Shown in pieces: positions 27,314-64,000 of a stretch of DNA of 64,000 bases. This stretch comes from Amphiscolops sp. MND2022 (Eukaryota), in contig OZ076409.1 of NCBI GenBank assembly GCA_964187785.1, forward strand, positions 38,752,001 through 38,816,000, read 5' to 3'. A program made the translations under genes and the position numbers. A model generated the notes under the pieces. The model made no database searches. It was not told the origin of the DNA and saw nothing but the letters and a program-made list of their open reading frames with translations. Position 1 is the stretch's first letter, and each line of letters starts with the position of its first letter.

Positions 27314-30300
27314 ATGATCGAAACTGATGACATAACTGTTGATCAAGCTCAGAACTTCATCCGAATGGAGGATTTATTAGCAGCAATGGATGGCGGAACG
27401 CTTGATATGCAGAATCAACTCTGTTACTGTTGCAGTTTCATCATACAGTGCAAGTTAGTAGAATAATCTCGAAGCGATGTCCGATGTTAGAATTTCTCCG
27501 TGTTCAGTTGATTATTATATGTATTTTATATTATTTCTTTCATCCCATATTCGTGGGGAAATTGTCTTCTAATTCACAACAGTAGATTGACAAGTAGTCG
27601 AATACTCATTTAATCTACAGGTCAATGAAAACTAATATGATCAAGTTGAACTCCAGGTCTTGTAAAATTTTTTTCATCGCAATTGTTTACTCATTTCTAG
27701 AGTCTTGACACCGCGAAGTAGCGAATTAGCGGCCGTTCAGCAATTCAAATTAGTGGTAACTAATGTAACCTCCAAAATCAAAATTTCCTCAAAATCTTAT
27801 ACAGTGTTTGAAGTTTAATTTCAAAAATTTTCAACTCCTACTGTAAAACCCACAGTTTAAAAATTCGAGTCTGCTTATCTTGCAAAACTATATCAAGTTA
27901 TTCAATTTTGTCTAACAATTAATAGTTCGGAGACATTTTTCAGCGAAACAGCGATTTTTAAATTAGCGGAAAGATAAGCGATGTCAAAACCCTTTTGTTT
28001 ACTCATCGATTGCTTCGCTGATCTATCAATACTGCTGTTCCAGTGACTGTCTGGGACTCTTTCGATCTCTACCGAAGTTCTTCATTCATAAGGAAGAATC
28101 CTGTTTCACCGACAAAAGTTGCGAAGACGAGTTGAGTTAGTTGTTTCTCATTGGTCAATTAATTACTATCGGATGAACAACAGATGGGGCACAGTGACCA
28201 TTTGATGTTTTTCTTCTCTTCGGATAAACATATAACAGTTTCCAAAAGTAGCTTAACAACAAGCCGGGACCGGCCCAAGTCGGCGCCATATCCAAGGCTC
28301 AAAAATAGCAAAAAGACTTCCAAGTGTCAAGTATTCTCTTTTACAGTACTCGAAAATCGAAAATTTTTTGAAAAAAAATTTCGAAAAAACTACATACTAA
28401 AAAAATGGACCGAGTGGCGCGCTAAAGTCTCACAATGCCGAAAAACTGAAGGGGGGACCCTTTGAGGTTTTTCAACATCCATTCTGTCGCAAAACATGAA
28501 AAAATTGAATAAAACAAAAATTTTTATTTTCGGGAAAAAATCTCACAATGCCGAAAAACTGAAAGGGGGACCCTTTGAGGTTTTTCAACATCCATTCTGT
28601 CGCAAAACATGAAAAAATTGAATAAAATGAAAATTTTTATTTTCGGGAAAAAATCTCACAATGCCGAAAAAACTGAAAGGGGGGACCCTTTGGGATTTTT
28701 CAACATCCATTGTCGCAAAAGATCAAAAAAATGCAGGGGGACCCTTTGGGGGAAAATTTTTTTTCGAAAAAAAGTCTCGCAGTGCCGAAAAAAAATGAAA
28801 GGGGTGACCCTTTGGTCTCGCCCGGTATGGTATGTTACGCGGAAAAACAGGAAAAACTCTTTTGGTTCAGTTCGCTAGGCCAAATAGTGCCATTTGGTGC
28901 AATAATATTTTGTAGAACTTTTAAGAACTATTTTGGTCAGTTCGTGTGGATAGGAAAAAAGAGTCACTATAATAGTCGCGTTTCACTTCATGAAGCGCCG
29001 ACTAAAAATACATGTAAGCGAAAGATATTATTGAATTTAGTTATAGCCTTGAAAACAGTTCGCTGTAGAAAAATAATTCCTTTATTATTAATTAAAGCGA
29101 TTACTTTGCAAGTTGGTCAACTCATTGATCGATATACAAGCAGTCTTCAATATTTTCTTGTAGCGGTATGATGAGTTTTTCAGAGACTTTTTTGGTGAAA
29201 ATTGGCATTCGTTTTACGGTTTTTGCTCACTGAATTGTGAAGATTTAAAATAAAATTATACTATCGCACTTCTCACTACTTCAGAAACTAATACCCTTTT
29301 GTATCTTTTGGACCTTTTGAATCTTTCTACGCACTTCAAGTTTGTTGAAACGCAAGCCCATATTGATATAATTTATTCGAAGCGTCTTAGGTTTTGTTAA
29401 CTAGTCTAACTAGTTTTTGTTTCAATAGCAGCAAATGAAGATTATGCTGCCAGTTTTGAAGCTTCCCAGAAGTCTTCAGTGTTGACCTCTGATCAGTTGG
29501 CACAGAGTGACAACAATGCTGATGTGTTTTTGGAAACAGTGGCGTCATCTGAAGAGCAGACACCAGTGGAAAACAGTAAATCAGACTGCCTAGATCTTGG
29601 ATTTGCTCCCGAAAACATATCTACGTCTGATGGTAAGTTTTCTCTAACCTTCTTATATTTTTTCGCAGCAAAATTCTCAAGTTGACCGTGTGAACTGAAA
29701 CTGTTTGTTAACAAAACCTGCTGTAGTCATGTTGCTGGACATGTCATAGTATGTTAAAGTTGAGTATGCGTTGCTAGCTGCATAGCCTCCTTGCAGCGCC
29801 CAGTAACGGTTACATTTAAAATATCGAATTCCATGATAAGTTGGGAGAATTAAAGAAAAGAACAAAAACTGCTCGTCTAAGAATAAAAATCAAGTCAAGA
29901 ATTGCTCGTTAAAGAGTACCCTGTGGAGGTGTCATTGTGACTGCCTCTCATTTTCTACTGTTGCTGCAATTGCAGAATCAGTCATTTCAGCTTGAGTGTA
30001 TGGCACCCACAAAGGCACAACCGATATTTTCGGAGGTCAACCTTTACTTTCATTCTTATGTAGCCCATTCCATCAGAAAATTGTCTTCGCTCAGCTTGAA
30101 CGCGAGCGGGTCCTGACCTTTGAGGCAGCTCTTCGGGTGGTTACAAAAATTATTGTGTCAGTAACCCTGACAATATTCATCTTCTGTCAAGAAAAGTATT
30201 TATGGGTCGCCGATTGCGTAAGGTTTTCAAAGCTCAACGTGGTTTCATCTGATTTTGCTGAAAACATGTGGAAGTTTAATGAAGAAGTCCACAATCTGTG

Positions 30301-31487
30301 GTATTGATTGCAGAGTAGTTTTTCTATGCTTCTTGTTTAAATTCTCATTAATTGCTAATTCAATTTGTAAAAAGTTTGCGTTTTTTCAAGGTTTTACAAA
30401 TGAAAGTGCACACAAAGAAAGGAGCTCAGAAACGAAGAAAGAGGAGGCCGCGGAAATGATGGAAGAAAGCATGCTGACACGAGAATCAACCAACGACCTT
30501 GATGACACCCCTTTCATCGCAATGCTTGTGGAGTGCGAGTTTTGTTCGGAATTATTTCAGTCCGAGGAAGAAAGGCTGGAGCACATGGCCATCGAATGTC
30601 CTTACGCTGAACCAGTCCAGTATCGTCGCAAGTACGACGACATTGGGGCGGACATTGACGACGGTGAATTATCTCCGAAGCGAAGAAAAGTGGCATACGA
30701 GCAAGATGATGATTTCGAGATACAGCCGAACGTTAAACAAAAGTTCGAAAAGAAGCTAGTTAACCTTTATTGCGAAATTTGCGACCGGCAGTTCAAAAGT
30801 TCAGCGGCCGCGACCAAACATCGCAAAAAAGTTCACAAGGATGGCGAGCTATTCGTCAGTCCGAGCATAAATTCATTCGAGTGCTCCGAGTGTTTCAAAA
30901 ATTACGCAACGAAGAAAAATCTAGAGCGTCACAGAGCTTTTGTTCATGGGTTGACATCTTCTGTAGCTATTCCAGATAAGACCTCCAACAAAAGTAAATC
31001 GACCCAAAGTAGAAAAGAACGGAAAGAAGTTGACTTGAATAACCAAGAGAATACTTCCCCTGTACCAGATGGGGATTCAAGTAGTGTGAAACCAACCAAA
31101 AAGCAAGTATACCATGATTTTTCAACCCCACGCATTTCGGATGAAGAACTTTTGATATATTACGACCATGACACCAAGCAATGCTTAATATGCTGTGGTC
31201 ATTTTGACACTTTAAAAGCAATAAGAAATCATATCAAATATGCTCACGCTGAACACGTGTCCTCTGAAGACATAGTTTTGGAATCCCACGCCAACCGTCT
31301 TCAGAACGAAGTGGCTTCTTTCCCTGAAGAAATGCCTTCCACTCTTCCTGATAGCTACTCTTCCTCCAAATCCAACACCACGGGAGATCGCAATTACGTT
31401 TGTTCTTTGTGTGGAAAACACTTTTACGTCTTACAGGAATACGAAACTCACATTGCTCTGCCACACAAAATAGCAATTAAATCATGA
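27314..31487 (+). CDS. Spliced gene: dispersed C2H2 zinc-finger protein, possibly with a divergent BTB/POZ-like N-terminus
   Basis: Last exon 30391-31487 (acceptor TTTTTTCAAG) has five fingers (CEFC..HMAIEC, CEIC..H..H, CSEC..H..H, CLIC..H..H, CSLC..H..H) and NLS SPKRRKV. Exon 29429-29632 (donor GTAAGT) is phase-matched. Upstream exons 27314-27453, 27621-27656, 27701-27755, 27805-27842 and 28044-28135 join GT-AG in one open frame but are less certain. Confidence 0.78.
28258..29008 (+). mobile_element. Non-autonomous Helentron/DINE-1-like element (HINE) in the ZnF gene intron
   Basis: End 1: AACAA-GCCGG GA CCGGC hairpin followed by subterminal IR AGTCGGCGC. End 2: GCGCCGACT-AAAAA. Central ~115-120-bp tandem repeats (TCTCACAATGCCGAAAAACTGAAAGGGGGACCCTTTG..). 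No TSD. Confidence 0.8.
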
Positions 31488-38653: not shown

Positions 38654-41376
38654 TTTGTTTGCAAAACGTACCATCTTGAGATCTTCAGCTCTGTGCAATT
38701 TTTCGCAAAAGGTTTTTCCTCACCGAAGCATCCCATCCCGTTTCCACTCAAGAGAAGATGTTTATTTTGAGCGTAGTGGGTTGACCGTTTGAAAATTTTG
38801 GAATTGTGCAATATTTTTCAACAGTTTTTTCCCGAAGTTTGTTTTTTTTTAAATGTTTTGAGTTAAGATGAAAAACAGTTTCCCAGTCTCAAAATTAACC
38901 TCTACGGTTACTTTTTGGAATTGTGAGACTGAATAAAGTTTTTTATTATTATTTGTCCTGCAGCATATTCGAAAGACTTGCTCTGTTTTGAGCACTTAGA
39001 ACCTTTTAATCAAGTGGACTAGATCTGCGTCTTTCATTTCAAATCATCGTGAAGTCTCAAAACGTCTATTAGCGTTCGAAAGAAAACAAAGTTTTGAGGG
39101 AGAAAAAGTTTCTGAAAGCATCCTTCAGCGCCAACAAATCTTTAGGATAGCCATCAATTGCTGGGACAAGCAGTCAAATCCTTCGGCAAACAATCAATTC
39201 CTTTGACAAGCAATCAATTCTCAATGAACACTTTTCCTTCTGGTGATCTTTCGCGCTGCATTGTGACATGGAAGGCGCACCTCGCCCTTTTTTATTGTGG
39301 GCCATTCAAAATTTAGCTAGAAAACGTTTTTTTCTGACATTTTTGCCAAAAACATCATAACCAGATACGTTACTTCAGACAAATTTCTGCAGCAAATTTT
39401 CCTATCAGCCGAGTTCAGGCGTTGTCTGTTATTACCAGCTTCTGTATAAAACCCTATTAAGTTTTTCGTTGATGGAAGTATTTCAGGTCCGACTGCTATA
39501 GGTCAGATCAGAGCTTTTAACGTGACTTCTCAAAAGTTATTTATATCAAGTTCAAGTTTACCAAACCGGGAACGCCTCCCGTAAAGACTCACTCGCAAAT
39601 GTTTATCAAATTTACAGTGACAAAAAATGCCCGATGGATATCCAAAAGACTGGAATACACCTTTTCCCTATCTCGGAACATCAAAAAAAAACAAAGTTTT
39701 GAAAGAAAAAAAAGGAAAGGCCTTTCGGGGAAAGTCTCATAGCCCCAAAAAATCCAGAAGATTCATTATATTTGCAACACCTTTTTCCGAGCCAAAAACT
39801 TTTTGAAATGTGAAGGGAGTACCATACTACCAAAAAGAACTGTTTCGAAAAACCGCAGGACCTAAAAAAATCAGAGGTTACCCTTAAACCTGGGAAAACG
39901 GTTTTCCTCAACAGAAAACCACTAAAAGGACAAAAATTCGGGGAAAATTTTTCAATTTTTGCTTGCAAAATGTTCAGATATAGCAAGTATAGAAATTTAG
40001 TATAGACTTATTATTAGTGCAGACGAATTTAATTTGTTACTTCGCGTCTCTTAGAAAAAGCCACTGCTATAGTTCTTTTCTTCGAAACGAGCCTCTTAAA
40101 ATGGAAAAAAGGTAGTTTCCAATATTTAAAGGTTTCTTTCGTCAGGGCAAGACTAGCCTAGGTTTCGAAAAATTGCTACTGGTACACTGTAGGCTACCAA
40201 AAGGTCACGCACAGCTATTTCTTTCCGATTAAACCAGTAAACACGAAACGCCACGGTTATAGTTCATTCGGAAAAAGTTTCTGAACAGATCAGTCGAATT
40301 GAAACAATTATTTGTGGTCATAGACGTTTCAGAAACTTTAGACATTCAAATTTCCCATCGCTGATGCTCTTGGTGGACCCTATTTGTACTGGCTTCCAAA
40401 AATTAAATAGGCACCCAATTTTACGTTTATTTTCAAGTTTAGCAGAAACTCTTCAGAGGTTAGTTTTGAGTTTTCCGAAATTAATCAGCCCTGTCCGACA
40501 ACCTTGTCAGAATCAACTTACATGTCCTATTTTTGTAACAAGAGCAGCTGAAAATATTTCGAACATAATTTGCTGAGGTTATTTTGCAACGGCGACAAAC
40601 TTGATGATCTAAACTGTCAGTTAATACTCTTGGTTTTCGAGTGTTTGAAGGTAAAAAAGTCAATAAAAATGTTTCCGCATTGTATTTGAGTCTGAAAAAA
40701 AATAATTGCGGGCGTTATTTAAACTATCAAATTCAAATTTTGCCTGTAAAAGACAAAAAAATGCTTTGAAACACGTACGTTATATCCGGACAATTAGTTG
40801 TTGTTTTCTTATGAGATAATTAAAATTAAAATTGGTTCTGTTTTTTCAACCGTTTGAGCATGAAACTGCTAGAAATCGGGAAGTACTTGTCATTTGGCCC
40901 AGTGGTTACCGCTAGATCCTGACGTGGCTCGCGGTGAGAAGTAGTATAACTGTAGTTTCGGGTTATCCCAAGATCTGAGGTGCATTCAGGGGTATAAGAG
41001 GGCCCCATTTCAAACTTGTTCAGGTTCTAGTTTCCAGAAGTCGTTCAGCAAAACTTTAAACGAAAATGGAAACAACAAATTGTGTTTTAATTATCCAGAT
41101 CTCATTAGCATCATTCATATCACAGCTCTATTCGAAGTTCGACTTCGAACTCTTGCTGAAATGTTAGTTTTTACAAAAATTTTTATGAAGTTTACCATGT
41201 ATGTGAAAGTACATTACATTACTCTCAGCTCTCTTCAATCACAATGTATGATGTGTTATAAACTGTAGTTTTGACCAAATTATGTAATATGTAACCAAAT
41301 CAAAAACGTAATACGTATTTTATCTAATACTATTTTGTTTTGCAAAACCACGCGTTGGCTCAAAGTGCAATAAAAC

Positions 41377-44300
41377 ATGTCTTTAACAGGAGAACAGAGA
41401 GACTTTCTGCTTAAAAATACTGTTTTCAATGACGCTCAAATTAACCACTTGATTAAGCGTTTCAAGGCTCTCCTACCCCGGGGACATGCAAACAGAGGCG
41501 GAGCGGAAGATTCAGAGTATAGCGAGGAAATAGCGCGTGAACAATTGACTTTTGTGCCCGAATTCACCAGTAATCCATTTATAGAAGCAGCCGGTCGTCT
41601 CTACTCCAGAGGTTAGCCTCCAATTATCCTGATTTTCCCGCAATTCGAAGGTCAGCCGGGAATATGTACTTTTTGGAACGCCCAAAGGGGCTTTGAGTGA
41701 GCGAGAAATGATGATTATAATTGTCAAACAGCTTTTCTAAAGCTGGAGTTCAGATACACTTTTCAGAATCAAGTATGGCTGATTTGACAAAGGAAATATT
41801 TCAAAGGGCCCAGTTTGACACTCTTACTAGCATCTTGGCTGCCATGGCAAAGTCTTGCAAAATTCTTACTACATCTTGGCGGCCATGAAACCCATGACAA
41901 GATTCTTAAGATTTTTCGTACCATCTTGGCCTTCTTGGTAAGATTTTTATCGGAAGCATGCCTGTCTTGGTAAGATCTTACCATGGCAAAATATATACCA
42001 TGTCAATATCTTAGCAAGGTCTTAGCCAAGATTGTTTCGAGATCTTGCGAAGATCTTACTAAAATAACCCGGGGCGTTAATGTTAATATGATTAAGCGGC
42101 GTATCACGGAAGTATCAACAGTAGAAGTTTTTCAATTTCTGTTAAGATTGCAGAGATATCCTCTGAATTGATACTGAATTAAAATCCAAAGCAGCTTCTG
42201 TACGTTTGGACTTTTCCAACGAATGAAGAGACAGACAACGTGAGAGAAGAATTTTTACACAGCAAGGTTTCATTTTTATTAGGAACGTTCCCAACATGAT
42301 ATCATGCAGCTAACACGCGGTTAATTTGACAAACATCAAATATTAATTACGGAAAATTAAAAAAAGTGAGGCCGGCAGATTTTTTTGCAGAACTTTCAAA
42401 GTAAGGGGAATAAAAGGTTCCAGTGTCTTTGAAAAAGCAATGGTCCTTCACATTTTTGTCACATAATCAATGTTATATGTACGTACACACTCCATGATAA
42501 CGCGTTTCATATTTTCGCCAATTTTTCCTGAAAAATGTTCATACAGTTATCTTACTATTTAAAAATAAAACGGAAGACAGAAGAAAAATAATGACGAAAC
42601 AGCTTCAAGCCGCTATTAAATCAAACGCACCAACAGAAATGGCACTTACATTGACTTGTTAGAAAAATGATTGAAAAGTCACGCATTGAGAACAAAAAAG
42701 AAACGGCGACAGGCAATTGCTTTGATCATCATTGAACTAACATTATTTTTTGTTGAAATTTCTTTGCTGCCTGAAATCAACGTAGGATGGATGTATTTTG
42801 TCTTTTCTTTTTGATATTCTAACCTTTCAGAAGTCACAATTTAAGAAACCGAAACTGAAGTAGTAGTAGTAGTTCAAACCCTTTTTAATAGAAAGCGAAA
42901 ACAGGATCGACCATTGCCATTTTTAGTCACAAGGACGCGAGGCGGGGTTTTAGGCTCATTTTAGTCTAAGAACTGCAGGCTGTTGTTTGCTTCACGATTT
43001 TTAACACAGAATTTAGAATTAGCAAAATATTCTTTTTCCAGGCTTTTAAAAACTACCTTTGAAGAAATCAAGGACAGCATGTAAACTGTCAAAATTTAAA
43101 CTTTTGCTAATTTGCTTGTTATTACTTACAGCGGCGTTCTAAAATATAGAAAACTCCGTTGCTCAAAATAGCAAATTTCGAATCCAAATATCGTAAAAAC
43201 TGTTATGAATACGAAAAACTGCAAGCTGGAAAAGTGTCTTAGGACTTTTTGTAGTTTTCAGAAAATTTTGAATTTTCCGTGACGAAAACTACAAATGTTA
43301 CAAATTGTAAGTTTTGACGAAATTTCATCAAATTTCTACTTTTCGTCAATTTACACAAAATTGAAAACATGTCTTCGAAAAGTTTTCAGTCAATCATTTG
43401 CCCCAAATCTCCTCGAGGATGTTGATTTCAAAAGAACTTGATCAATTTTCTAAAAAGCCTATCTTAATACATTTATTGCAGTGCTCATAGACACAAAACA
43501 CTGCATTTTTCCTATTCAAAATAAACTCTCAATCAGTACAGTACAGTAGGTTTGAGTGATTACAAGTATCCGAATCAACGAAATTTTAAGATTTAGGCCT
43601 CTTAGTTGTCGAAACAACTCAATTTTCAATCAAAAATTTTTAGAAATTGCAAGTTCCAACTTTCTCAGAATGGGTTGTAAAAATTTCAAACAAACATTTT
43701 TGCAAACGATATTAAATTCTGGGAAACTTTTGTTGTTGACAATTTTTTTTGTATTTGAGACAGTTTGCGAGAGATATTTGGTTTTGATTTTCGTCGTTTT
43801 GAGTAATGGAGTTGCGATATTTGAGAACGCTACTGTACACTAAATAGCGTTCTAAAACGTGGCAAGTTCAATATTTGAAATGACAAATTCAAAAGAAAAT
43901 ATCTCGTTAACTGTAACAAATAACAAAACGGTCAGCTAAAGACGTTTCTTAGAATTTAATATCGTTTGCAAAAATGTTTGTTTGAAATTTCTACAACCCA
44001 TAATGAGAAAGTTGGAAGTTGCAATTTTTAAAAATTTTTCATTGAAAATTGAGTTGTTTCGACAACTAAGAGGCCTAAATCTTGATATTTCGTTCATTCG
44101 GATACTTGTAATCACTCAAACCTACTGTACTGTACTGATTGAGAATTTATTTTGAATAGGAAAAAAGCACTGTTTTGTGTCTATGAGCACTGCAATAAAT
44201 GTATAAAATAGGCTTCAAAAATTTTAATTAGAAAATTGATCATTTTCATTTGAAATCAGCACCCTCGGGGAGATTTCAGGGCAAATGGTTGACAAAAAAT

Positions 44301-44990
44301 TTTGAAAAATATTTCTTTAAACTTTGTGAAATTGCTCAATTTTCGTCAGTATTCACGATTTCTAACTTGGGTAAATTTTGTCGCGGAAAATTCAAATCTT
44401 TTCGAAAACTACAAAAAATATAACTAAGAAACTTTCTCAGCTGACAATTCTTCGTACTCATGACAATTAATTCTTCGTACTCATGACAATTTTCAAGATA
44501 TTTGGATTTGAATATTGCAATTTTAGGCAATGGAGTTGCAATATTTTAGAACTACCGATGGACGGTTTAGTGCATGTGATGGTGGTATAGTTATTAAGTC
44601 AGTTAAAAGTAGAACTAGCTCAAAGAACCGTCTTAGTATAGAATAAACTTTGATAGTTAATCTGGTCCCTAATTGTTAATGGTGAATTTATAGGGTCATT
44701 TCTTGCTGTCAGATTTGACAGAGAACCTTTCAAAACATCGCATTAATGGTATTTTAGAAGAGAACTCGAGCAGATCGAGATGTATAACAAAAAAGTTTTG
44801 ATTTCTTTAGATGATTCAGGAATTGACGCCATCGAATTCATCAAACTGTGCAACATGTTTTCGCCCAAAGTGCCCTCAGAGAACAAAAGAAGGTTCTTGT
44901 TCCGCATGTTGGACATAGATTTCAATGACTACATAGACTATGACGACCTCTTCAGATTCTACAAAATGGTTTTTGGACCCGGCATACCAG
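41377..44990 (+). CDS. Calcineurin-B / CHP / CIB-like EF-hand protein, exons 1-2 (41377-41611, 44811-44990); 3' exon(s) not identified
   Basis: Exon 1 MSLTGEQRDFLLKNTVFNDAQINHLIKRFKAL..VPEFTSNPF (family motif F..EI..L..RF..L / PEL..NPF) with donor GTTAGC. Exon 2 follows TTTCTTTAG and is phase-1 matched: IDAIEFIKLCNMFSPKVPSENKRRFLFRMLDIDFNDYIDYDDL..MVFG (EF-hand loop); donor GTGAAA. Confidence 0.85.
41810..42075. repeat. Small MITE-like repeat built from CCATGGCAAG/ATCTTGG motifs
   Basis: Repeated CATCTTGGC, CCATGGCAA, AAGATCTT; CCC..GGG-like ends. Confidence 0.5.
43133..44553. mobile_element. ~1.4-kb foldback: two inverted copies of a ~700-bp TIR element in the EF-hand gene intron
   Basis: 43458-43720 is nearly the exact reverse complement of ~43950-44213; each half has its own termini (GCGTTCTAAAAT..AACTCC / GGAGTTGC.ATATTT.AGAAC). 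Confidence 0.85.
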
Positions 44991-45403
44991 GTGAAAAAAT
45001 ATATATTCATTGGAATACCTCAATAATGAAATTATTCTTATCATTTCATAGTTTCAGAAATTAAACGAATATATGTTTCTTTTCAAATTTGTCGATATGG
45101 CTTTGTTGATGAAAATTAGTGAAAATGTTGCCAATATCAGCAGTTCGTGGGATATTTCTGTTGGGATATGATTGAAGGTTCTAACCTTGTCCGTGGATTT
45201 TTGTCCGTTGTTCTTCAGACCATTGTGAGATTTGGTCACGGAGGTTTCGTCATTGTTACATGGAGATAAAATCAATATACTTTGACATGAACTCTATTCT
45301 CATTTTTAGTTATCAATTTATAATCTTTTGCAGAAGAAAAATTCAAGTTCAACTTTTGAAAGTAAAATGAAATTGAATGCTCCGCCGTTTCAACTGGTTA
45401 TTA

Positions 45404-56280: not shown

Positions 56281-57435
56281 TGTAACGGATCCAAGAAATT
56301 TATGACTGACAGACTTGCAAAGAAATTTTAAAATAACCCGCAAACTGTTCGACTACGACATGAATTTGAGGCTCAAAAATAGCCAGTGCACTATGAAAAC
56401 GCAGAGAAGTTCGAACGAATGAAAGTGAATGTTTACACTATTCTAACCCACGGAATAGCTGGAAAATGTTACAAAACCTGCATGAAAACGTTCAACTTTT
56501 TTGTATTTTTAGGGGCATTTGTGTGCATTTTTCTACTCACAAAAATGCAAAAGTATACATTGAAAGGCGTACTGCATACATAGTTATTTCGTTCGGATCC
56601 TGATGAATGATAAATATTAAACAAAAAAGGTCAAAAAATATTACGGTCCCAAAGAAATTTTCTTTCAACGTTTGTATTTTCTATATAACAGCCTTTTTCT
56701 TATAGTATGAAATTCTCTTCTTTGTATGGGTTCGCTGACTGTTATGATAATTTGGAGTTCAGTAATTTAAAATTACTAAGGCTTTAGGACTACCGTAAGA
56801 GGGATATCTTGAGTGAAAGAGAAAAAGTTATTTTTGCTTTTTGGGGAAGAATTTAAATTAAAATGAAATCAGAGTTAAGAGATGAAACAAAGTTTTAAAT
56901 ACTTTTACAAGTTTACAAACTAACATATTGGGTGGACTATGGGTGGCTGAGTTGGAGTTCTGAATTTTGTTTCTTCTTCAGTTGATTGTTGTTGTCTTCT
57001 GGTTTGTAGCTTCTCCAATTGTTGAAAGATTAGAGATCGATTTTTATTTTTGTTAAACAAGATTAATAAACGGCATGAACACGATAAAACGGGTTCGAAA
57101 GAACAAGATTAAGCTCGCAGAACTCAAAATCTGCAAATCTGCAATTAATTACACTAGGCTCTGGATAAGTCCAGATAATTGAACAAAAACGTAAATAAAT
57201 GGGGATCGGAGTAATTGGACAAGATTTAAATGCGGGGTTTACAAAATACTGTATAAAACACAACACGTTGTAGAACTATCTGTGTAATTATGTGACTGGT
57301 TTTGTACTGATAAGCAAATTTGTATGTAACTTAGAAACATGAATTGTTTTAAGTGCTTTCTTGTTTTGTTTTGTTGCTCCGGCTTTTGTTTACTAGGGGC
57401 CGTCTTTGTTTTCGTGTTACCGCTTGCTTGTCACA
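56281..57435 (-). repeat. Putative 3' LTR (~1.15 kb)
   Basis: Minus strand: PPT AAAGAAGGAAGTGG (57436-57449) then TGTGACA. The candidate end ..CCGTTACA at 56281 gives imperfect TGT(G/A)AC inverted ends. The inner boundary is firm; the outer boundary is tentative because the partner LTR is outside the window. Confidence 0.62.
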
Positions 57436-57468
57436 CCACTTCCTTCTTTGTGAAATTGCGTCTCGCAA

Positions 57469-58450
57469 TTATAGATCCGTGAACTCGTGAAGATTTCGTA
57501 GAAACGGGTCGCAACGGCGACATGTCCGCAGACCAATTTCGTTTCGTTGTATTCCAGGAAGGCCACAACAAGCATAGACTTCCTTTAACGTGGGATCGAG
57601 GAGGATCCGTTTAGCTTCCTTGACAAACGGTATGTATTTGCTGGCCGTGGTTGTGGCAGCCTTATTTTTGTCGGGATGTAGTGTATGTACCAGCACGCGG
57701 TAGTTTTCCTGGATAATCTCGGCATAAGACGATGGGTTGCAACCGAGCAGATTGAACAACAAATTATCAGGGGCATCTTCAGGCTCAGGTTGTAAGGGTA
57801 GTTTTGTAATATGGTGAGCAAGCATCCTTTGTAGAATGGGGACTTGGCGTTGGGTGGCAGCTAAATTCCGGAGCGTGCTGAGTTCTTCAGTGAGCTCTAA
57901 AGTCGGTTGCAATAAGGACTCATTCTCCGCTGTAAGGGCGGACAGGCGTTTTTGGAGTGCTTCGTTAGCTGCCTCTAGCTCTTTGGTAGTCTCCAGTTGC
58001 TCACAAAGGACGTCCATGGTCAACGAAGTTTCGCGACGAGCATCCTCAAATGCTTGATTCAATGTAGTAACATCGTCGAAGCGTTTTGTTAGGAACGCTG
58101 CATACTCGTCAGTGTCGACGCAGCATTGAGTACCGGTGTCAGCGGTATCCGGCCAAACACGGGGAGGGGTTGGCTCACAGAGGCAGTTTGGGGTCGGCTC
58201 GTCAACCATGAGACAAGCATCTTGGCTTGCTGGAGGTAACACGCAAATGGCTGTTGATGGGCGCATGAAGCTGCGCTGGTTAGGAGTAGCGTCCATTCGT
58301 CGTAGGACAACAGTCCCACTGTGGGGATTAACACGTAGGACAGTGTATTCACGTTCGTCCAGAATCTGCACGGTGTCGCCAGGACTGATGGAGGCGATTT
58401 TCCCAGAACAGGTGTATAGATTTGCTCCTGCACGGCGCTTGGCGGGGAAC
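57469..58450 (-). CDS. Accessory ORF: N-terminal beta-rich module + coiled coil + C-terminal DnaJ/J-domain
   Basis: Intact ~327 codons. J-domain LFNLLGCNPSSYAEIIQENYRVLVHTLHPDKNK..FVKEAKRILLDPTLKEVY has the HPD motif and helix I-IV pattern. Heptad region LEAANEALQKRLSALTAENESL. Splice acceptor at 58451. Confidence 0.85.
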
Positions 58451-58645
58451 CTGAAACATAACAAAAGATTAAAAGAGACCGATTAGGGTTTTATGTGACA
58501 ATTTAAAGTGTAAAAGGAGGGGTTTTGACGACTGTAAGATGGAAACTGAGATCTTGAGCTACAGAATGATTAAAGCTTTATTTGCGAGAGACAATTCACG
58601 GTTTTATTTTGTAGACTGGACACATAGGTATGGACAAGAATTAGG

Positions 58646-58838
58646 GCACGGACACGTGCATTGACTAGGCACAACACGGAAACGTGTGGAGAGGGCACGG
58701 AAACGTGCAAAGTGAGGACTAGACGCAAACGTGTATGTTAGATAACACAATTTTTTTGGGCACGGAGACGTGCAGAAAAGGGGCAGAGATAAGTCTGCGT
58801 TAGTGTCCATCCAAATAAAACGGGGCACGGATACGTGC
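58646..58838. repeat. Array of GCACG-GANA-CGTGC mini-palindromes
   Basis: Perfect units at 58646, 58674 (ACACG/CGTGT), 58695, 58760 and 58825; one imperfect unit at ~58721. Confidence 0.9.
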
Positions 58839-58956
58839 ACAAGGTGGTGACTAAGAGTCACGGCTAAAAGTCACCAAATTAGGATAGTTATTTGTATTAA
58901 TACTTTTATATATACATATATAGAGAGGTGGTGTCGAGGCATTTAAAGGGTTGTAG

Positions 58957-61294
58957 CTATGTCGTCGTCTCGGAGTAGTGAGGAGCAGTAACATCTGGAT
59001 AAATTCGTGGAGGAATAATTGTTGGAACTGTATCGGAGATGCAATTAGAGTCACGCGTCATTTGTAAGGTTTCCTTAGCCAGGCCTTGTAGGGCAAGAAA
59101 TTCGTTCTTTGTCAGATAGAGGAACGGCGCGTTATTCTCTATCAGTGAGGGGTTTTCACTGTCGTCCAAGATGTGGATGAATTGGCCTTGGGAACTTGTG
59201 AAGAAACGTTGAGGATGAAGAAACAGACGTTTCCATAGTCTGCGGAAGAGTGTGAAGCTGATAGTAAAAGATAACAAGGAAAGTGTAATGGAAATGCCGG
59301 AAAAGAGTGCGGCTGTACGATAAGGCAAATACGATTGCAGGGCATGTGATGTGGCTGGTGATATTGACGAGTAATGATCTGCGATGGGTTTAGTTAACTC
59401 ATCAATTGCGGTGTTTGTCATTCTATGGACATCAGGAAGCTCCGCAAGCTCCATCTGGACGCTGCCGATAATGGATTCGCGGGCTTCTCCAAGCGAGTAG
59501 GCATGGAAAACATTGCTAGACTGGGGAACATGCTTGAACACTTGTTCAAGTGACGGGGTAAGGGCAACAGTAGCTACAAACGGTTCTGGATGCGTTTCAC
59601 AGAAGTCCATGTCAGGCGACAGTACAAGATCGCCCTGATTGAAAGAGAGCGTACTGGTACAGCTCGGGCGCATTATACAAGCTTGACACATTACAGTGGT
59701 GACTGAGATACCATGTAATCGGCTATCGTTTTTCACTTGCAAGACCGGATCTCTTGAGATTATGTGGTACAAACCATCCGCTAAATAGAATGCCTGTGGG
59801 GCATTTGGTAGGAGTACAGATTGAACGGGACAGTTCCTCAGGCTAGGAATGTCATAGTTGTAGAGTAGGGAACTCAAACAAAGAAGTGTTTCGTCTGTCG
59901 TAGTAGAGAAACCCTTGCGACAGAGTTTGATCCTATTATTCCCTGAGCACTGTTGTAGTGTGGAACCTTCGAGTTCCGCAAAACGGGAGTTGTCCGTAGA
60001 AACTGCCAAAAAGGGCTTTTGAAGCTGGTACAGAGATGCTGTCTTGTTGTCCCCATTCGGTTGATGCAGGGGATCGCGTGATACACATCAAACGTGGAGG
60101 ACTTGGAATTCATAGGAATTCCGAGCACTACTGAGATGCCACGAGGAATCAGTGTGACCTCTAGCACGATGTTAATTTCATAATAGATAGCTTCGTACCC
60201 TGGTTGAATAGCTGGCGATAATTTAGTACCGCGGCGGACTTCATCGTCAGAGAGTTCTTGCACGATGTCCGCAATCTCCTGTGGTAAGAGAAACTGGGGC
60301 GTAATGTGGCCACTCGCGAGAGATGAGATGGTGGAGAACAAGTTAATCTTGTAAGCGTAGAAAGCAGCTTGGTAAGATTTGATGTGAGTGTAGAGAGAAC
60401 CCATGTCTGATATGAAGTTACGAATCTCCTGAAGGAACTTTATATGGACCGTTTCTAATCTTTGGCACTCCTTGTGTGCTACTATCGTACCTTTTATGGT
60501 GCGTACCTCTTTGTCTATTCTGTGTAAATGCTCATTTATTTGGTCCCTTATTTCTTGCAGATTATGTTGTGTTGCTTTGACTTCATTACCGAGAATGAAG
60601 AAATTTTAGGTCATTCCTTGCCTGCACGCGCTGCAGAGTCAAAATGGTCTTCTGTTGGGTATCCAAGACAGCTTCGACATCTCGCGACAACTGGCTGTTA
60701 TCGCTACACATGTTGAATATTGATAACGCTGTACATGCAGCGTCCTTGATCGGATCACCCAAGATTAATCCGGCGCCTGCTCCAATAGCTGCAACAGCGC
60801 CAACAAACCGTTTCTTTCGGGGAGCAGAAACTTCTTCTGTCCTATAAATCTGTGGCAAGAATGACTTCGTTATCTCGGAGAGGCCATTTTGGTCCTTGAC
60901 CGATGCGCTCATCTCCTTTTTTACCAGATTGACTCTTTCTTCCAACTGCTGGACCACTAGACTGTAGGTTTCGTTTATCTTCTCCCAATAACAGCTTGTC
61001 TGGGCGTACATACCGCCGACTGCTATCGTTTGTACTTTGGCTAGAGCCAACAGGCGTTCGACTTCAGTAAGATTCACTTCCGGTATTTTCGGAAACGGGG
61101 AAAACACACGAACTTTGCTCTCACTCTCGGAGGTGACAGCTTGGTACTTGAACAGGAAGGCTGCGCCTTTCTTGAATACAGGGACTTCAGGATTGTCATT
61201 GAGGTGGGTAGAGTAATGCGTAATGGCGACGCAAACTTGAGAAGTGAACAACCGGCAAAGGAGGGTGAACACTTTGTCGTTTGGAAAGTGTCGC
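58957..61294 (-). pseudogene. env: env: class I (F-type) fusion glycoprotein, ~780 aa, with two frameshifts (~60607, ~60065)
   Basis: Furin site RKKR followed by fusion peptide FVGAVAAIGAGAGLILG; heptad repeat; ISSLASGHITPQFLLPQEI motif; Cys-rich block (QCSG..LCRKG..LCLSSL..NC); TM AALFSGISITLSLLSFTISFTLF then RRLWKR. The three ORF-track pieces join after single-base corrections. Confidence 0.9.
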
Positions 61295-61449
61295 CTGAAA
61301 GTAAGAGATATGCGTGAAGGTTTGTATGTGTCCAATTGGTATCGTAGAAATAGATAGAGGATATAGTGTACAAGCTAATGATTGCTAATTCTTCCCGTTT
61401 TATACTTTTTGTTGGTTTTTTGAATATACTAAAGGAGGGAGATGCGAAT

Positions 61450-64000
61450 TCAGGTGCGTTTGCTGTTACGCTTCTGTTTAGAAGTGTTGGGGGAATTGAA
61501 GTCAGTGACATCGTTTGGGAGATTTGCTTTCCATAACGGTTCAGCTCTACGCTGGGCTTGCGTTGATTCGCGAAGTGTGCGTGATCTTGGTTCGGGGAGG
61601 TGGAGAGTACGTGCTGCCTGATGCATAGCATGTCGGTACCAAGGCGAGGTTTCATTAGAGGGAAGATTTGATGAGACGGGGCTGGTCGGGAGGCTTTTCG
61701 TTAACAGGGGTTTGTTGGGGGAGGAATTGAGCCAGCTGGGTGATGTATTCTGGTAGGAAGGTTGGTTGGGAGAAATAGAGGGAAATCGTTGAAGAGGTGA
61801 TTCTGCATGAAGAGGTCCGGATGTTGGGGTGGTTGTTGTGTGAGTGGTGGGAGCGATTGGGGCTGTTGGTGACGCAACAAAAGGAGTAGAAGGTGCAGAT
61901 AAGGGGGTTCCCGGGGTAGCAGATGAAGGTGCGGGCGCGAAAGAAAATGGCCAATTACATTGATCGTGATCAAATGCAGAAGCAGTTTCAGGGTTTTCTT
62001 TACTATGAGGTTTTGGGTTTGCAAACTGACTTGTATCTCGGGTTGGGACATTGGATGTAGGTGGGGGTTCTTTGAATGGTTTCAAGCGATCGTAATGAAC
62101 CACCAATTCCTTTTGAGTTTGTTGGTCTTGAATCCGATAAGTTACGTCGTTAATGTCCTGCAAGATGACATAGGGGCCTTTCCACGGGCTGAAGAACTTC
62201 GATGTTTTGCCAACTGGCACAACTGGATTGTGAAGCAAAACTTTCTGTCCTGCTTCGTAGAGGGGTCCGTGAACTTTGCTGTTATAGATGGCGTTTCGTC
62301 TCTTCTGGTTTTGATTGAGGGCGGACCGAGCCAGTTCGTAAGCCTTTTGGAAGGCTAGTTTGCGCGCGGAGACAAATTCATTCGTATTTGACGCTGGTTG
62401 ATCCTTTGGGTTGGGGTACATGAAATCGATGGGTAATGAAATTTCTTGACCATAGACAAGAAAGTGGGGCGTGTAGCCAGTCGATTCATGTACGGAGGTA
62501 CGATATGCCATCATGACATAAGGCAATTGTGTTGACCAATTGTCCTGCTCGTCGTTCACACACTTTTCAAGCATGCTTTGAAGGGTCCGGTTCATCCGCT
62601 CGATAACAGCGTTGGACTGCGGTCGAAAAGCCGTGGTACGGGTTTTCTCAATCTGGAGAGATTGCATTAACAGTTTGAAGATTTTTGACTCAAAATTACG
62701 ACCTTGGTCACTGTGGATGCTATAAGGAAATCCGAAGCGGCAAATCCAATGTTGTAGCAACGCATTGGCAGTTGTAGAAGCTGTTTGATCTGGAAGTGGA
62801 ATGGCTTCGTACCATTTCGTGAAATGATCTCCAATTAGTAGTATGTGCTGGTTCCCGTTAGACTGCGGCAAAGGACCCAGGAAGTCAATACCAATGTGAT
62901 GGAATGGGTAGCTAGGGGGCCAATCCGAGAGAGAATGCAGGTGTTTCTTTGGAGGGTTGGCCCTTTTTTGGCATTGTTCACATCTACCAATGAATAATTT
63001 ATTATCTTCCTTGAAATTAGGCCAGTAGAAACGTTTTCGTACTTTTTCAGTGGTTTTGAATACACCTAAGTGTCCTCCAGTAGGTGAAGCGTGAACTGAT
63101 GAGAGTATTTCCTGGACCATATCAGGTGGTACTATCTGCTGGAAATAATGATCTCCGGTTTTGATCAGTTCGAAACGTCGGCATAGGATGCCATCTCTAA
63201 TTAACAGGCTCTTTAACTGATTGGCCAGTCGCCAGGTTAGACGGGGAGAACCCTGCAACTCCTTGTTACTCGGTGTTGTACCATCGGTTATCCACTGATG
63301 AACAGTTTTCAGTGCTGGATCTTTCTGCTGGGCGCTTCGCAGAGGGTTTGAATCGTTATCTTGGAGGACTTTAGTCCCTTGAGAAGGCTCACTGATTTTT
63401 AGAGGTGACTTGTCTTCAGGAGCCAGTTGTTTTGTAACTTCTGGTAGAGTGAGAACCGTCACTCGGATTACTGAACCATGAAACAAATCTTGTATCATGT
63501 CCCTTACTTCCTTCCAATCCAATTTGTCGAGACCACATCCAATTCTGGGCAAGCTAATGCGTGTGACATTATTTGTTTCGGCATGGGTTCTCAACGCTAT
63601 GAGAGAGGCTCTAAGGTTCTTGTATGTAGGTTTATGGAAGTAACGTCTTTTCGTTATTAGGTGGTACAGGAATCGCTGAGACTGGTTAATCACCTGGGGC
63701 CAAAGGGGTGCATTGTTAACCATTTCCTTTGTAGGTATCTTCGTCGGGAATTGCAGTTTTAGTTCCTGAGCAATTCCGGAAGACATTTTGAAGTCAGCCG
63801 ATATGCAGTGCGCAATGGAGTCGGCGACCTTCAAAAGGTCTCCTTCCTTCTCGGTGTAGTTAGCTTGGTTTGATCGGTTTGGCCATTCGGACTCGTCTTC
63901 GTAGTAAACTGTTCCTCCCGGCTGATCAACAGGTTCCGGTTGTGTCGAGACTATATTCAATGCTCTGGTTGGCGTGCGGGATAGACCGTCTGCGTGTCCA
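61450..64000 (-). CDS. pol: pol C-terminal part: end of RNase H, TARG1/OARD1-like macrodomain, integrase (HHCC, DDE, GPY/F), Pro/Ser/Thr-rich tail; open at the window edge
   Basis: In-frame HADGLSR at the window edge; EGDLL..SIAHCISADFKMSSGIA..YHLITK..KPTY..ISLPRIGCGLDKLDW; H-ASPTGGH..CEQC; IDFLGP, HSDQGRNFES, AVIERMNRT; WKGPY; no stops over >836 codons. Confidence 0.95.
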   Translation of the reverse strand, partial: GHADGLSRTPTRALNIVSTQPEPVDQPGGTVYYEDESEWPNRSNQANYTEKEGDLLKVADSIAHCISADFKMSSGIAQELKLQFPTKIPTKEMVNNAPLWPQVINQSQRFLYHLITKRRYFHKPTYKNLRASLIALRTHAETNNVTRISLPRIGCGLDKLDWKEVRDMIQDLFHGSVIRVTVLTLPEVTKQLAPEDKSPLKISEPSQGTKVLQDNDSNPLRSAQQKDPALKTVHQWITDGTTPSNKELQGSPRLTWRLANQLKSLLIRDGILCRRFELIKTGDHYFQQIVPPDMVQEILSSVHASPTGGHLGVFKTTEKVRKRFYWPNFKEDNKLFIGRCEQCQKRANPPKKHLHSLSDWPPSYPFHHIGIDFLGPLPQSNGNQHILLIGDHFTKWYEAIPLPDQTASTTANALLQHWICRFGFPYSIHSDQGRNFESKIFKLLMQSLQIEKTRTTAFRPQSNAVIERMNRTLQSMLEKCVNDEQDNWSTQLPYVMMAYRTSVHESTGYTPHFLVYGQEISLPIDFMYPNPKDQPASNTNEFVSARKLAFQKAYELARSALNQNQKRRNAIYNSKVHGPLYEAGQKVLLHNPVVPVGKTSKFFSPWKGPYVILQDINDVTYRIQDQQTQKELVVHYDRLKPFKEPPPTSNVPTRDTSQFANPKPHSKENPETASAFDHDQCNWPFSFAPAPSSATPGTPLSAPSTPFVASPTAPIAPTTHTTTTPTSGPLHAESPLQRFPSISPNQPSYQNTSPSWLNSSPNKPLLTKSLPTSPVSSNLPSNETSPWYRHAMHQAARTLHLPEPRSRTLRESTQAQRRAEPLWKANLPNDVTDFNSPNTSKQKRNSKRT

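Follow-up and report, generated by a model that had tools for sequence, protein, structure and literature searches.

A conserved splice-donor motif in the LTR of Ty3/gypsy elements from Amphiscolops sp. is predicted to supply the start codon of both env and a J-domain gene

In this work, an env-carrying Ty3/gypsy element was analyzed in a stretch of 64,000 nt from Amphiscolops sp. MND2022 (G000:C1:38752001-38816000, hereafter the window; genome 1.07 Gb). A conserved splice-donor motif ending in AT, located in the LTR, is probably joined to either of two acceptors whose exons begin with G, and the junction would thereby create the start codon of env or that of a gene encoding a J-domain protein.

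The element and its relatives

The motifs are located in the 3' half of a minus-strand LTR element, in which the gene order in the window is pol (to 61450), the env-like gene, the J-domain ORF, and an LTR of 752 nt. The 3' LTR (56684..57435, minus strand, TG...TA) is preceded by a polypurine tract (57436..57449, minus strand) and differs from the 5' LTR by 8 mismatches and 6 gap columns, with 738 matches. The 5' LTR lies outside the window, 1.8-2.6 kb past its end (G000:C1:38817805-38818550, minus strand; L022:2806-3551), and the copy is flanked by a 4-nt target duplication, TAGA. The 3' part of pol (61450..64000, minus strand) comprises a macrodomain-like region that precedes the integrase, and the RT, RNase H, and primer site are found, like the 5' LTR, past the window end (L022). 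The pol order protease-RT-RNase H-integrase, with the protease read from the sister copy L025, is of the Ty3/gypsy type, and the RT matches Ty3 with E 1e-50 versus E 5e-25 for Retroviridae. With direct LTRs, a primer site that we take to be of the leucine-tRNA type, a polypurine tract, and a target duplication, the hallmarks of Ty3/gypsy (Metaviridae) are present, and the element is a Ty3/gypsy LTR retrotransposon carrying env. The window copy is defective: compared with a 98% sister copy on C2, about 2.6 kb including gag and protease are missing. Its pol is spread over more than one frame and its env over three, and the J frame is open. The window also contains an open frame of 421 codons (30222-31487, plus strand) that encodes several C2H2-like zinc-finger motifs and is probably a host gene.

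Relatives in the same genome were collected by protein search, which gave at least 140 matches, and the flanks of 58 loci were scored, 55 with an N-terminal J match and 39 with an N-terminal env match. These relatives form six families, A (that of the window) to F, whose J proteins share 30-46% identity with the J protein of the window. Third codon positions of J are saturated between families (0.29-0.34; first and second positions, 0.49-0.73), and LTRs of different families are nearly unalignable, blastn aligning no more than two patches, of 40 and 26 nt. As the loci are copies of common origin, the effective sample is the six families, which themselves share descent. No relatives were confirmed in metagenome and viral contigs. 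In one locus (L038, G000:C5:54.03 Mb), an internal deletion fuses gag straight to the middle of the J-ORF.

Splice-acceptor motifs at the J-ORF and env

The J-ORF (57469..58450, minus strand) is open for 326 codons after the G at 58450 and has no start codon of its own, the first ATG of its frame in the window being only at codon 52. It is preceded by a splice-acceptor motif in phase 2 (58451..58488, minus strand) with a branch-like CTAAT at 58486-58482. The preliminary description had taken 58450 as the first exon base, with its G in the third codon position, and had read the env acceptor (61295..61310, minus strand, phase 2) in the same way, with G at 61294 as the first exon base; both readings were confirmed. 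The host DNA of the window contains 2.4 acceptor-like AGs per kb, a rate at which one copy alone is weak evidence. By scoring intron-side bases only, irrespective of phase and exon base, the top-scoring AG around the J start was found to be in phase 2 and followed by G in 47 of the 55 loci and in all six families (6/6). Acceptor-like sites inside coding regions gave phase 2 with G in 0/44 cases (phase 2 in 13/44), and G follows 29/268 acceptor-like sites in host DNA. The pattern of acceptor phase and G across the relatives is far beyond chance. The loci that depart from it (8/55) are mostly truncated or decayed copies, and in the 98% sister copy L024 the J acceptor is weakened to AAG.

In open J frames, the first Met is at codon 23-165, within the conserved domain or later, and the spacing between the acceptor and the conserved core varies by whole codons between families. 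Furthermore, in database relatives the same trace of the acceptor is visible, as 'CFR' ahead of the J start. In two decayed, B-like copies (L118 and L162), ATG stands at precisely the position that the J acceptor AG/G occupies in other copies (the slash marks the predicted exon boundary). The J-ORF region is repeated in tandem, with an LTR or without, at G000:C12:47.297-47.303 Mb, C7:29.287-29.294 Mb, and C12:54.715-54.743 Mb; in the two J arrays examined the intron-side acceptor is kept.

At env, the best-scoring acceptor is in phase 2 in only 27 of the 39 loci, because in eight family-D loci a phase-0 AG located 47 nt upstream outscores the phase-2 site followed by G, which is also present. 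This second strong acceptor of family-D env starts (L092, L131, and others) is mostly followed by G and is in another frame. The exon base covaries with the presence of an own ATG. The env genes without one (families A, D, and E) have G after the acceptor; in the window, the first ATG of the env frame is only at codon 95, and in open family-D env the first Met is at codon 72, past the hydrophobic N-terminus. On the other hand, all loci called phase 2 with A (11/11; families B and F) have ATG within six codons, and L124, L151, and L165 likewise combine A after the acceptor with ATG within six codons. Family C env has G after the acceptor plus its own ATG. Since family B clusters with D, separately from F (support 90/95, moderate), the switch from G to A probably happened twice. 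The exceptions to the acceptor/ATG rule are L154, with T after AG and no own ATG, as well as L039, L024, L032, and L027. Codon 8 of env is GTG in the window and ATG in the family-A copy L039. The earlier view that env needs splicing for its start would fit families A, D, and E, in which env is ATG-less; in some related families (B, C, and F), env carries its own ATG.

A donor motif inside the LTR

An AT/GT donor near the gag start, in a phase fitting both ORFs, had been predicted. A donor motif fitting both phases does exist and is conserved in 6/6 families, but its place is inside the LTR rather than close to the start of gag, a gene that the window copy has lost by deletion. Among the donors listed, no conserved AT/GT donor was found between the primer site and gag. 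In the 3' LTR, the motif AT/GTTAGT occupies 56919..56926 (minus strand), with the last exon base at 56925, 241 nt before the LTR end. The identical copy in the 5' LTR, presumed to be functional, has its last exon base at G000:C1:38818046 (minus strand; L022:3047). The donor thus lies upstream of the primer site, and in family A about 240 nt before the LTR end.

The motif AT/GTWAGT (W = A or T) was found 192-244 nt before the LTR end in 7/7 representative LTRs from six families (6/6), in the form AT/GTTAGT in family A and AT/GTAAGT or AT/GTTAGT in families B-F, and it was seen in 5' LTRs of families A, B, C, D, and F. In all seven representative LTRs (7/7), the AT-preceded donor is the sole GTNAGT (N = A, T, or G) of the examined stretch. 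In shuffled LTRs, the motif occurs in 1.9-4.8% per LTR and AT precedes 5.5-11% of strong donors, values that do not form a joint probability, because the representative LTRs were picked after the donors had been seen and the families are kin. Seven of the eight columns of the donor core are invariant over the six families, whereas the flanks mostly agree in 2-4/6. Counted over the window, ATGTWAGT was observed 6 times versus 3.7 expected, so the evidence from a single copy is weak.

Downstream of J, the donor motif was found in 45 of the 55 J loci. It is absent at the other ten (10/55); L028, the 3' LTR of L088, and L107 have AA/GT. The donor of L040 is AT/GTTCGT, and L149 has no strong one up to 800 nt from the primer site. 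L104 and L113, of a C-like subfamily, both break the rule, as their downstream donor is TA/GTAAGT and their J acceptor is also altered. The GTTAGT of families A and E is a weaker donor than GTAAGT. A host EF-hand gene in the window (exons at about 41374-41610 and 44770-45030, plus strand), presumably calcineurin-B-like, has a first exon that appears to end at a GTTAG donor, which was counted as support for GTTAGT donors. Moreover, AATAAA occurs 124-152 nt upstream of the donor in 5/7 LTRs, which suggests that the donor is placed in U5.

Gene products

The J protein consists of a beta-rich N-terminus, a coiled coil (long helix), a J-domain with HPD, and a Cys-rich tail. The Pfam DnaJ match is above cut-off (E 1.6e-9), HPD is present in 10 of 12 aligned rows, and the top fold matches are J-domains with E 0.002, none reaching E <= 0.001. 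By its predicted J fold with HPD, the protein is a member of the J-domain family, and it would act as an Hsp70 co-chaperone in folding or assembly. Its N-terminal beta domain gave weak KOW/Spt5-like fold matches. Among the database relatives, an env and a J protein are both placed on NCBI records of 3477 nt, and J alone on records of 1.1-2.1 kb; these records were left out of the evidence.

The env-like gene (58957..61294, minus strand) is spread in the window copy over three frames with breaks near 60600 and near 60070, and has open frames of 760-829 codons in families B, C, and D. Its product has a hydrophobic N-terminus, a basic RKKR site, a glycine-rich fusion-like peptide, and a C-terminal membrane segment. 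The N-terminus aligns with those of the ATG-bearing families; its signal was judged by hydropathy only, with a value of 1.65 in family A versus 2.15-2.59 in families B-D. A Baculo_F match was obtained for 4 of 28 aligned members (best E 3.4e-8). The env model has a pLDDT of 53, its fold matches are only non-significant RSV F rows, and comparison with solved sequences and folds gave nothing significant. The env is likely of the F type and, by its env-like ORF after pol, the element is classed as an errantivirus in the wide sense.

Intact leaders contain two extra conserved ORFs ahead of gag. The first (L025:4017-4262, minus strand; also in L077, L087, L144, L149, and L152) encodes 75-89 aa that include a PPxY-type motif, a single membrane segment, and two Cys residues without variation, and is cut after 7 codons in the window copy. 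We take its PPxY motif to resemble that of a late-domain or ubiquitin-ligase adaptor. The second (L025:3648-4001, minus strand; also in L077, L087, L144, L146, and L152) encodes 118-139 aa with invariant CxxC and HxxxH, and its product is possibly zinc-binding; it gave no Pfam match and no usable Atlas match. L146 has two paralogues of the second ORF plus a further ORF of 100 aa. No AT-phase acceptors are conserved for the small ORFs or gag.

Proposed expression strategy and alternatives

Motifs, phases, conservation, covariation, and protein domains were observed directly, and from these we infer the transcription start, splicing, and translation. We hypothesize that transcription starts in the 5' LTR and that the donor lies within the transcript. 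The unspliced RNA would serve as the genome and as the message for the two small ORFs, gag, and pol. Splicing from the LTR donor to 61294 would give the env mRNA, with an intron of 4751 nt in the deleted copy of the window, and splicing to 58450 would give the J mRNA, with an intron 2844 nt longer. In both, the AU at the end of the LTR exon would be completed to AUG by the G that opens the acceptor exon, and the choice of acceptor would set the ratio of env to J mRNA. The two alternative subgenomic mRNAs of the preliminary description are thus supported by the phase fit and conservation of the LTR donor and by the acceptors. Because the donor precedes the primer-binding site, this site would be absent from both spliced RNAs, which the element could then not copy. 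By comparing 94 stretches upstream of env or J starts with 47 LTR exon stretches, no spliced genomic copy was found (0/94), and the LTR-exon matches run on into intron-side LTR sequence in 11/11 cases. Such a lack is expected for spliced RNAs without a primer site and is weak support, as the genome searches give lower bounds and rare processed copies are possible.

It is improbable that genuine acceptors are supplied by a different donor or in two steps, for example from a GTAAGT after the primer site, or for J from a donor inside env, in which case the LTR motif would serve only one of the genes or act in RNA processing. In family A, a consensus GTAAGT is indeed present about 290 nt past the primer site, acceptor-like sites follow the primer site at 222-253 nt in families B and C, and family D has the second env acceptor. 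However, this post-primer donor does not follow AT, a stop in the required phase stands 12 codons ahead of it, and none of the donors listed for families B and C corresponds to it. The LTR donor alone is common to the six families and fits both phases.

Quite improbable is the expression of env and J from internal promoters without splicing, by near-cognate starts or their own ATGs. Such a promoter has a precedent in the env of Oikopleura Tor3b/4b, as far as described in PMC4402516. The own ATG of B, C, and F env, the GTG of the window env that is ATG in L039, and the ATG at the acceptor position in L118 and L162 are in its favor. This explanation would leave unaccounted for the phase-fixed J acceptor in 6/6 families, the LTR donor, and the acceptors that precede ATG-bearing envs.

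Very improbable, finally, is a coincidental fit of AT and G, with the LTR motif acting on translation of the genomic RNA as a start codon or AUG-stop element, or with a trans-spliced leader joined to the acceptors. Unspliced, the donor bases do read ATG, and flatworms have spliced leaders ending in AUG, but the ATG frame runs for 22 codons in A and stops at once, after 1 codon, in B, C, D, and F, so there is no conserved LTR peptide. Conservation reaches as far as donor positions +4 to +6, and a leader ending in a whole AUG requires phase 0 and not phase 2 with G.

Comparison with known systems

Gypsy, whose env had been cited as the precedent for a junction-made start, is itself a member of the springer subclade. 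A start codon created at the junction has been published for the Drosophila springer subclade, in which env is spliced to an AU dinucleotide that forms part of the start codon (as described in the accessible text of 10.1101/2023.08.03.551782). The springer donor is 43 nt downstream of the 5' LTR, and the accessible text describes one spliced gene (PMC13097621; 10.1101/2023.08.03.551782). The elements studied here resemble this subclade in being Ty3/gypsy with env after pol and in having an AU-ending donor with a G third-position acceptor, here as motifs only. In contrast to the springer elements as so described, the donor motif here is inside the LTR (192-244 nt from its end) and not between the 5' LTR and gag, and it fits two genes, one of which encodes a J-domain protein.

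The 'ancient errantiviruses' with F-type env are gag-pol-env Ty3/gypsy elements of non-insect animals from many phyla (PMC13524379), which our elements resemble in gene order; leucine-tRNA primer sites occur there as well. The main text of that paper mentions neither splicing, DnaJ, nor accessory genes, and its seven supplements contain neither DnaJ nor splice (PMC13524379). In Oikopleura, the env-bearing, gypsy-type Tor elements are similar, with the Tor3a env mRNA spliced from a 5' LTR promoter by a donor near the gag start and Tor3b/4b env transcribed from an internal promoter, although the accessible text describes no J gene there (PMC4402516). Within Retroviridae, foamy viruses likewise have a splice donor in the R region of the LTR (PMC3185757), and walleye dermal sarcoma virus (WDSV) carries one accessory ORF upstream of gag and others on subgenomic RNAs made by splicing (PMC3185748); unlike the present elements, neither has a split start codon or a J-domain gene in the text available (PMC3185757, PMC3185748). 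A literature search, with most subscription papers outside its coverage, listed no paper that describes an LTR element with a J-domain ORF or two genes with a common split start codon, and PMC6431247 does not mention DnaJ. The env start from AU and G is known from published work on the Drosophila springer subclade. The novel features are the LTR-internal donor, the J-domain gene, and the two ORFs before gag, and apparently also the use of the donor by two genes.

We give even chances to a broader scheme, in which this would be a complex lineage with six genes (two pre-gag ORFs, gag, pol, env, and J). A single two-base start stub in the LTR would be alternatively spliced to env or to an Hsp70 co-chaperone, the resulting mRNAs could not be reverse-transcribed, and each solo LTR would offer host exons a promoter together with a start-making donor. 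ATG-less ORFs of such a kind get wrong starts from gene callers. If the proposed splicing from the LTR is true, the split start codon has been reused for a second gene, and a J-domain co-chaperone joins the accessory genes of LTR elements. It would mean that retrovirus-like complex expression, with one donor, several subgenomic mRNAs, and accessory genes, exists in a further Ty3/gypsy lineage.
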